Shown: positions 5,035 through 6,205 of the stretch, piece after piece
Layout: every line of letters starts with the position of its first letter
How positions within the stretch are numbered: position 1 is the first letter of the stretch
Virus record (IMG/VR): IMGVR_UViG_3300008111_000001
Origin: a virus
Strand: one strand, 5' to 3'
DNA length: 64,000 nt
The notes under the pieces: generated by a model
Database searches by the model: none
What the model saw: only the letters and a program-made list of their open reading frames with translations
What the model was told of the DNA's origin: nothing
Program-made: the position numbers and the translations under genes

Positions 5035-6093
5035 ATGAGTAAGACAATCCAAGAGCTCCTCTCTGGTCTCCCAGCTTGGGAGGCTGCACTGACTGAGGAC
5101 GGGTATATCGATGCAGACAATAGAGTAACCATTAAGGAGGCTTTTGCTTCACCAGACGCAGCAGCCCTTTTCCCCAAGGTTCTCTCTCGTACGCTAAGAG
5201 AAGCAGCTGAGCCACAGCTTCTTGTGACCCCCCTGCTTTCCACTGTTCGTCTCGGTAAGGGGCGTTCTTTGGAGTTCCCAGCAGTCAATGCTATCCAAGC
5301 GGCTGAGATTCCAGAAGGCCAAGAATATCCAGAGCAAGCACTCGCCTTTGCAAAGCAGGTAGAGGGCAAAGTTTCAAAGAAGGGTGTAAAGCTAGCTTTC
5401 ACTGAGGAAGTAATCGCTGACTCACTTTGGGACATTGTCGGTCTACATGTTCGTGCAGCCGGACGTGCCATGGCTCGTTTAAAAGAGCAGATTGCTCTTA
5501 GCCGCTTCAAGGATGCAGCAACTATCGTTTTTGACAACGATAGCGGTTCATATGATGACACAACAGGTCTTGACATTAATGGCGCTGCCAATCAGACAAT
5601 TACCTGGGATGACATCGTGGACATGGCTGCTGTTCTCATGGCTGAAAATCATGTACCAACAGACTTTATTCTTCACCCCCTAATGTGGTCGGTATTCCTC
5701 AAGGATTCCATCTTCCATGCCGGTGGTGCAGCTTCTGGTGTTGGCACAAGTTGGGGATATCGTCCTCAGTCAGCTGAGGGTGCCCTTAATTCAACAGCTC
5801 CAATGGGACTAAATGTCCTTGTTTCACCATTCGTAAGCTTTACCGCTAAGAGTGGTGCAACTGCAGCTAAGTCAGACTTGTTCTTGATCGACCGTAACGA
5901 GGTAGGTACACTTCTCGTTAAGGACGACATGAGCACCGATCAGTTCGATGATCCAAGTCGCGACCTTCGTTCACTAAAGATGAAGGAGCGGTATGACATC
6001 GTAATGCTAGGTGACGGCGAAGGTATTACCGTAGCTAAGAACGTCAGACTCAGCCGTAACTATGAAGTACAGGTTACTAACGATATAGCCTGA
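5035..6093 (+). CDS. Major capsid protein, HK97 fold
   Basis: AGGAGG RBS; AAEIPEGQEYP E-loop motif, KKGVKLAFTEEVIADS, spine helix AAGRAMARLKEQIAL, TDFILHP and MKERYD near the C-terminus; followed by a terminator. Confidence 0.93.
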   Translation: MSKTIQELLSGLPAWEAALTEDGYIDADNRVTIKEAFASPDAAALFPKVLSRTLREAAEPQLLVTPLLSTVRLGKGRSLEFPAVNAIQAAEIPEGQEYPEQALAFAKQVEGKVSKKGVKLAFTEEVIADSLWDIVGLHVRAAGRAMARLKEQIALSRFKDAATIVFDNDSGSYDDTTGLDINGAANQTITWDDIVDMAAVLMAENHVPTDFILHPLMWSVFLKDSIFHAGGAASGVGTSWGYRPQSAEGALNSTAPMGLNVLVSPFVSFTAKSGATAAKSDLFLIDRNEVGTLLVKDDMSTDQFDDPSRDLRSLKMKERYDIVMLGDGEGITVAKNVRLSRNYEVQVTNDIA

Positions 6094-6099
6094 TAGAAA

Positions 6100-6135
6100 A
6101 CCTTAGGGTCGTTATAGTTACAAATTACCCTAAAG
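6100..6135 (+). other. Hairpin in MCP 3' UTR containing a 22-nt antisense match to 23S rRNA helix 69-70
   Basis: 6100-6121 reverse complement GTAACTATAACGACCCTAAGGT versus 23S GTAACTATAACGGTCCTAAGGT (20/22); TTAGGGT 6103-6109 pairs with ACCCTAA 6127-6133. Confidence 0.5.
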
Positions 6136-6138
6136 CTT

Positions 6139-6176
6139 GGGGGTGGTGGAGAAATCCGCCACCCCCTCTGCTTTTA
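6139..6176 (+). terminator. Rho-independent terminator after major capsid gene
   Basis: 12-bp stem GGGGGTGGTGGA / TCCGCCACCCCC (one G-U), GAAA tetraloop, followed by TCTGCTTTT. Confidence 0.85.
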
Positions 6177-6190
6177 TTGGATTTCTTTTA

Positions 6191-6205
6191 TTACTATTAA
6201 AATAG
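6191..6205 (+). promoter_or_regulatory. Putative phage late promoter TTACTATTAAAATAG
   Basis: Directly after the terminator; identical to 2568-2582; upstream of the next gene. Confidence 0.55.

Follow-up and report, generated by a model that had tools for sequence, protein, structure and literature searches.

Introduction

In the CopA/CopT (R1) and RNA I/RNA II (ColE1) pairs, an antisense RNA is encoded opposite its target gene and acts on an mRNA or a primer. A stem-loop of the antisense RNA shows complementary bases towards the loop of the target, and pairing can spread into the stems. A different arrangement is found in 3′ UTR-derived sRNAs of the CpxQ and SroC type, whose seed lies between the stop codon and the terminator of an mRNA; the known sRNAs of this type target mRNAs or other sRNAs, not rRNA. 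Phage takeover of translation, for its part, is known via proteins and tRNAs.

Helix 69 of 23S rRNA forms the central intersubunit bridge B2a and is in contact with tRNAs, release factors and the recycling factor. Its loop comprises nucleotides 1911–1919; in mature E. coli ribosomes, helix 69 contains pseudouridines at 1911 and 1917 and an m3-pseudouridine at 1915 that blocks Watson–Crick pairing, and nucleotides 1920–1931 are paired or buried in the mature 50S subunit. The same 23S segment is the classical homing site of I-CeuI. A synthetic PNA directed against helix 69 inhibits the growth of E. coli (Kulik et al. 2017, as cited in PMC7038079), which implies that helix 69 is accessible to an antisense molecule.

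This report examines a hairpin behind the major capsid gene of a large, uncultured freshwater phage, by means of which the phage probably pairs an RNA with the large ribosomal subunit of its host. The mechanism would be of a known kind, namely a base-pairing antisense RNA, but the class of target would be unprecedented. In full-text literature searches, a natural phage RNA directed against helix 69 did not turn up, nor did any description of a natural viral RNA that pairs directly with rRNA.

The capsid gene and its 3′ hairpin

The stretch of DNA analysed, referred to as the window, comprises 64,000 nt and is part of a 98.6-kb IMG/VR record that is about 47% complete. The phage belongs to a very large family of ~200-kb freshwater phages; the contigs of relatives reach 193–252 kb, and two of them are closed with terminal repeats. 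The features of the capsid locus are as follows.

5035..6093, plus strand: major capsid protein gene, 352 aa (phrog_3922 major head protein, E 1.6e-26)
6100-6121, plus strand: 22-mer ACCTTAGGGTCGTTATAGTTAC, 4 nt past the double stop and ahead of a strong terminator
6101..6107, plus strand: block A, CCUUAGG, antisense to 23S C1924-G1930; its last five bases are the outer part of the hairpin 5′ arm
6108..6110, plus strand: variable spacer, GUC in the window, opposite 23S G1921-U1923; contains both wobble differences
6111..6121, plus strand: block B, GUUAUAGUUAC, antisense to 23S G1910-C1920 (helix 69 loop and closing pair); presented in the hairpin loop
6103..6133, plus strand: stem-loop (MFE fold) with 5′ arm 6103-6109, 17-nt loop 6110-6126 and 3′ arm 6127-6133
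6139..6178, plus strand: predicted intrinsic terminator of the capsid transcript, with a 12-bp G+C-rich stem, a GAAA loop and a U tract
6191..6197, plus strand: TTACTAT motif, candidate phage late promoter of the next gene (start 6220); context, outside the element

The capsid gene ends in TGA and is directly followed by an in-frame TAG (6094-6096); the capsid proteins of relatives carry PF25209/PF05065. The sequence-only reading had placed the 22-mer after this TGA TAG pair and before the terminator, and both its sequence and its position are as described there. The 22-mer and the hairpin are non-coding. The hairpin at 6103-6133 is not itself an intrinsic terminator, as AGCUUG and not a U tract comes after it; termination is assigned to the next hairpin, whose stem shows compensatory substitutions among relatives. 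A capsid frameshift or readthrough through the hairpin was considered, given that the +1 frame is open in the window, and was rejected because indels in relatives break the frame.

The element occurs once in the window and once in the near-complete genomes of relatives. The phage record contains no rRNA gene, and the hairpin is thus encoded in trans to its presumed target. No Rfam family matched at gathering score anywhere in the window, and the DNA of the locus had no match among cultured phages.

All large genes of the window lie on the plus strand. Repeats of TTACTAT(T/A)A stand 30–50 nt upstream of late genes, at 2568, 6191, 10688 and 14515, and the TTACTAT after the capsid terminator is kept in all relatives, including those that lack the hairpin; this motif is likely to be a phage-specific late promoter. 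The loop complement, TAACTAT, resembles TTACTAT, and a minus-strand promoter within the hairpin was therefore considered; this idea was dropped, as no promoter copy departs from TTACTA.

Complementarity to 23S rRNA and its chance level

The reverse complement of the 22-mer agrees with 23S positions 1910–1931 at 20/22 (annotated rrlH of E. coli). The two mismatches, A>G and C>T on the mRNA strand, oppose U1923 and G1922, and both give G·U pairs. The match stops at 1931; the bases that follow differ. RNAfold returns a stem of 7 bp, formed by 6103-6109 and 6127-6133, and the 17-nt loop enclosed by it contains UUAUAGUUA, the complement of the helix 69 loop. Match, wobble-compatible differences and fold had all been read from the letters beforehand, and the comparison with rrlH and the computed fold bear them out. 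The loop sequence, CGUUAUAGUUACAAAUU, holds no YUNR tetramer, so that a U-turn motif is absent. By computation, the duplex with 23S rRNA reaches −32.7 kcal/mol, against −18.1 kcal/mol when the two RNAs fold separately.

Taken alone, the match is weak and unremarkable for a scan of such size. Of 60 dinucleotide shuffles of the window, 1 matched the E. coli rRNA operon at 20/22 on one strand or the other; the best duplex energy of the hairpin against all rRNA has a z of about −3.4 and was equalled by 1 of 60 hairpin shuffles. This corresponds to p ~0.02–0.07 per window, close to the figure of about 0.1 that the sequence-only reading had estimated for chance. What lifts the element above chance is its conservation and recurrence, not the match itself. 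A sense partner within the phages was sought in five phage genomes, with none found for the 22-mer at up to three mismatches or for an 11-mer at up to one; the 11-mer counts equal those of the controls.

Conservation and covariation among relatives

Conservation and covariation in relatives had been set beforehand as a test of the hairpin, and both are seen. In 146 of 164 related loci, the capsid gene is directly followed by the element; the 164 loci stem from two capsid queries, some contigs having been fetched twice, and contain 51 distinct variants with a complete capsid gene. In the relatives, the 5′ arm of the hairpin begins 0–10 nt past the capsid stop codon. Blocks CCUUAGG and GUUAUAGUUAC are 91–96% identical between relatives, against 42–49% for four-fold sites of the capsid gene. 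Block A accounts for the lower part of this range (91–94%, over pairs of relatives with four-fold sites near saturation), block B for the upper (95–96%), with 6 of its 11 columns invariant in the 51 distinct variants. A sister clade (L121/L130) matches the 23S complement at 22/23. What varies is the 3′ side of the loop, the 3′ arm, the stretch between hairpin and terminator, and the terminator's own stem.

The stem covaries. Across 40 distinct sequences, 97.7% of cells are paired, four of six pairs have changed on both sides, and the observed covariation score was matched by none of 500 shuffles. Interior wobble pairs of the stem are G·U on the plus strand, which identifies the mRNA strand as the folded molecule. 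Compensatory stem changes together with the many interior G·U pairs thus indicate that the element works as RNA and on the mRNA strand.

The constraint on the two arms is lopsided: UUAGG in the 5′ arm has an entropy of 0.83 bit, while its 3′ partner has 3.28 bit and occurs as 15 different 5-mers. Moreover, CCUUA/block A is retained in three lineages (L114/L160, L139 and L127) in which the hairpin offers no pairing partner for it. The lopsided constraint and the retention of a partnerless CCUUA together imply that the sequence-constrained span is the one complementary to 23S ~1909–1931. The hairpin is therefore a conserved RNA structure of the mRNA strand, and the bases it conserves are those complementary to helix 69 and to the 3′ flank of that helix.

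The spacer between the blocks is 2, 3, 4 or 9 nt long across relatives, so an uninterrupted 22-bp duplex is not the conserved property. Its sequences include GUC, GUU, ACU, AUU, GCC, GCU, GUA, AAA and GC; most variants differ by transitions only (purine-pyrimidine-pyrimidine) and automatically still pair with GGU, which is consistent with pairing and is not independent evidence for it. In block B, about five wobble-keeping events stand against about four pair-breaking ones, with no clear or significant bias towards 23S pairing; one of the pair-breaking changes, G>U opposite C1914, lies at the loop centre. G>A changes in block A are compensated inside the hairpin, not towards 23S rRNA. In deeper relatives (capsid 45–72% identical), block B is absent and another small hairpin is often found at the same place; a generic structural role for a hairpin at the capsid 3′ site is thus likely to exist as well.

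The same antisense in unrelated phages

A 56-nt 23S segment (1895–1950) was compared with 50,697 cultured phage records. Besides rDNA contaminants, two groups of matches were obtained.

L190:1406-1536 and L192-L194:306-436, minus strand: Vibrio phage module, antisense to 23S
L191:1501-1523 and L195 and L196:401-423, reading antisense on the transcribed strand: 23-nt segment of Arcanobacterium and Staphylococcus phages

The Vibrio phages PWH3a-P1, qdvp001, R16F and 10AMN share an unannotated, conserved intergenic module of ~110 nt adjoining tRNA genes, with flanks that differ from phage to phage. On the transcribed strand it is antisense to 23S 1907–1930 at 22/24, and a second segment, antisense to 1930–1936, follows ~60 nt further on; the first part folds as the mirror image of helix 69. 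Genes for homing endonucleases are found close to this module. In the second group, made up of Arcanobacterium phage TPWB06 and Staphylococcus Sextaecvirus phages, the antisense covers 23S 1927–1949 at 21/23 with two G·U pairs; in TPWB06, it lies 10 nt past the stop codon of an exonuclease gene, upstream of a tRNA array. All four mismatches of the two groups are wobble-compatible. Three control queries (the reversed segment and two other conserved 23S regions) gave five non-rDNA match groups, all of them inside annotated genes.

In IMG/VR, an exact 16-mer antisense to 23S 1909–1924 was searched for, with the reversed 16-mer as control. The raw number of exact matches, 17 against 96, does not exceed that of the control and was rejected as evidence; the two sets differ only in coding status, extension and strand. 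The antisense 16-mer occurs in nine distinct non-rDNA contexts, seven of which are non-coding (about seven metagenomic families), and in several of them complementarity extends further, up to 27/28. For the reversed 16-mer, 47 of 49 distinct contexts are coding, most without extension. In all six non-coding families that could be oriented, the antisense lies on the same strand as the flanking genes. Counting the capsid-hairpin family and the two cultured groups, the antisense is on the transcribed strand in 9/9 lineages. A longer query, an exact 21-mer antisense to 23S, returned a single rDNA contaminant from IMG/VR.

In some of the modules found with the 16-mer, the next terminator has a loop with an additional anti-23S segment, complementary to GUAGCGA or GUUCCGA. 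In L198/L203 (element at L203:3434) the terminator loop shows UCGCUAC, against 23S 1931–1937, and in the module at L211:3692 it shows UCGGAAC, against 1954–1960. In L202/L212 (element at L212:7898) CGGGC/GCCCG pairing closes a large loop that contains the helix 69 antisense; the loop of the next hairpin there, AUUCCUUGU, is sense, not antisense, to 23S 1938–1946. Unrelated phages, then, carry differently built non-coding modules with the same antisense to the helix 69 region.

A 23S look-alike RNA in bacterial tRNA arrays

The exact complement of the 22-mer was also sought in one genome per species of 185,579 species. None of these genomes has a 23S gene with this complement (GACCC/AACCC). The 12 matches found are four chance matches in coding DNA and eight copies of an RNA in tRNA arrays.

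L083-L085, L087-L090 and L093, for example L084:4380-4660 (minus strand in L084): copies of the array RNA, on bacterial contigs from four phyla

Each copy holds CGTAACTATAACGACCCTAAGGTAG on the tRNA strand within the array; five come from Cyanobacteria and one each from a Saprospiraceae, a Verrucomicrobia and a Polyangiales genome. The array RNA is ~230 nt long, starts with CGUAACUAUAACGACCCUAAGGUAG and continues like 23S helices 70–71, with 18 covarying pairs; it looks like a free-standing mimic of 23S domain IV. Against Rfam, the eight loci gave no match at gathering score, and the L084 copy none at E<=10. A search of 401 cyanobacterial genomes with a second pattern found only the Mastigocoleus genome (G009) on which the search had been centred, and the array RNA was not found in the viral contigs of IMG/VR.

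The two departures of the array RNA from 23S rRNA make it a 22/22 Watson–Crick partner of the commonest variant of the phage family. The phage RNAs antisense to helices 69–71 and the array RNA could conceivably be two sides of one conflict, in which phages would seize or disable large subunits by RNA pairing while a bacterial decoy, placed in the same arrays that back up tRNAs, would soak up the phage RNA. We regard such a decoy role as quite unlikely.

Proposed mode of action and alternatives

With moderate confidence, we propose that pairing with the helix 69–70 strand of 23S rRNA (~nt 1909–1931) is the property under selection, and that the hairpin acts as an antisense RNA carried in cis that presents its bases in a loop. 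It is the pairing with 23S rRNA and its effect that we infer; the sequence, fold, conservation, strand and recurrence are as described above. Transcription would place the hairpin in the final 80 nt of the late mRNA that is most abundant. The hairpin loop would display the complement of the helix 69 loop, while the 5′ arm would hold the complement of the adjoining strand; pairing would begin loop to loop and spread while the hairpin opens. Opening may be aided by position, with the 5′ arm inside the footprint of the terminating ribosome; going by established footprint sizes, this arm would be melted whenever a ribosome terminates.

The likely target is a free or immature 50S subunit, not the translating 70S ribosome, since mature helix 69 carries the m3-pseudouridine at 1915 and nucleotides 1920–1931 are then paired or buried. 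A large subunit or late precursor bound by the hairpin would be unable to join the 30S subunit, because helix 69 forms bridge B2a. The effect may be that large subunits are sequestered, tethered or delayed in their maturation late in infection. A real pairing would amount to a new route of host takeover, and it would account for a recurrent class of phage non-coding RNAs that lacks annotation. Versions of the element occur in cultured Vibrio and Staphylococcus phages, which makes the system tractable and directly testable.

Among the alternatives, an ordinary cis-acting 3′ UTR hairpin whose likeness to anti-23S sequence is coincidental is a credible but rather unlikely explanation. Such a hairpin might be the site of a phage or host RNA-binding protein, or a stabiliser or insulator that shields the terminator from terminating ribosomes and blocks 3′ exonucleases. 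The stem covaries as a structural element would, a sequence-specific loop combined with a one-sided stem constraint is typical of protein-bound hairpins, and distant relatives without the motif often keep a small hairpin between stop and terminator; the lack of a clear substitution bias towards 23S pairing and the chance of a few percent per window also agree with this explanation. It leaves unexplained, however, why unrelated phages have the same antisense in different modules on the transcribed strand when controls match coding DNA, why some modules carry extra segments antisense to neighbouring rRNA, and why conservation and 23S complementarity stop at the same point. It is also very improbable that the partner is another RNA bearing helices 69–70, such as the domain IV look-alike of the tRNA arrays, which the capsid 3′ UTR would neutralise or by which it would be soaked up. 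The perfect 22/22 complementarity of the array RNA includes both bases that differ from 23S, its surrounding ~230 nt fold with the covarying pairs given above, and the true 23S copies of Mastigocoleus keep GGTCC; but this RNA is rare (8 species of 185,579) and absent from IMG/VR, and an exact match to one variant is not very surprising where the middle triplet is the variable part of the phage family.

A site recognised in DNA, by an I-CeuI-like homing endonuclease or a recombinase, is more doubtful still. The 23S segment is the classical I-CeuI site, and homing endonuclease genes occur near the Vibrio phage module, yet the full site of ~26 bp, with its AGCGA part, is not present, and no LAGLIDADG_1 (PF00961) gene was found in three genomes of the family, G000 (47% complete), G001 and G007. 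The antisense lies on the transcribed strand in every lineage, its mismatches are of the wobble type on that strand, and the stem shows G·U pairs and compensatory changes of the kind expected of RNA. Of the interpretation offered by the sequence-only reading, the conserved antisense RNA hairpin is supported, whereas the suggestion of an I-CeuI site, nuclease decoy or nuclease target is disfavoured: the match ends before AGCGA, no LAGLIDADG gene was found in those three genomes, the strand is always the transcribed one, and interior G·U pairs point to RNA, not DNA. Least probable of all is that the minus strand is transcribed into a mimic of helix 69, which would be a decoy for the factors or toxins by which this helix is recognised. 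The minus-strand reading of the element gives a hairpin whose loop has the sequence of the helix 69 loop, and in some variants this fold is as stable as the plus-strand one or more so; against this, the large genes and the candidate late promoter are all on the plus strand, G·U pairs of the plus strand would become A·C mismatches, and there is no conserved minus-strand terminator. Strand bias, RNA-type covariation, the truncated I-CeuI match and the lack of a LAGLIDADG gene in the three genomes weaken the last three explanations together.

Comparison with known systems

Like the CopA and RNA I type, the capsid hairpin has a stem-loop that shows complementary bases towards a target loop, and the proposed spread of pairing into the stem is the same. 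The phage element differs in that it is encoded in trans, in the 3′ UTR of an mRNA, and in that its presumed target is rRNA; the YUNR U-turn motif of the CopA and RNA I type is not visible in its loop. With 3′ UTR-derived sRNAs, it shares a location between the stop codon and the mRNA's own terminator and, by analogy, a short RNA sharing the capsid terminator could be released. The synthetic anti-helix 69 PNA is aimed at the same target stretch, but it is a man-made oligomer and not a natural, phage-borne RNA. The element also overlaps the conserved 23S rDNA segment of the I-CeuI homing site, with only part of the 26-bp site present.

A further likeness is to the other phage RNAs antisense to helices 69–71. 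The capsid element belongs with them in an informal anti-helix-69 class, which has no published or Rfam family and is defined by complementarity of at least 16–22 nt to 23S ~1907–1931, location on the transcribed strand, non-coding context, single copy and conserved bases. The other members are likewise non-coding and on the transcribed strand, keep the complementary bases conserved and often lie before or inside a terminator. Their architectures are non-homologous: free-standing modules of ~60–110 nt, bipartite or permuted segments, and segments in terminator loops. The capsid element, unlike these, is a single hairpin fixed behind the capsid gene.
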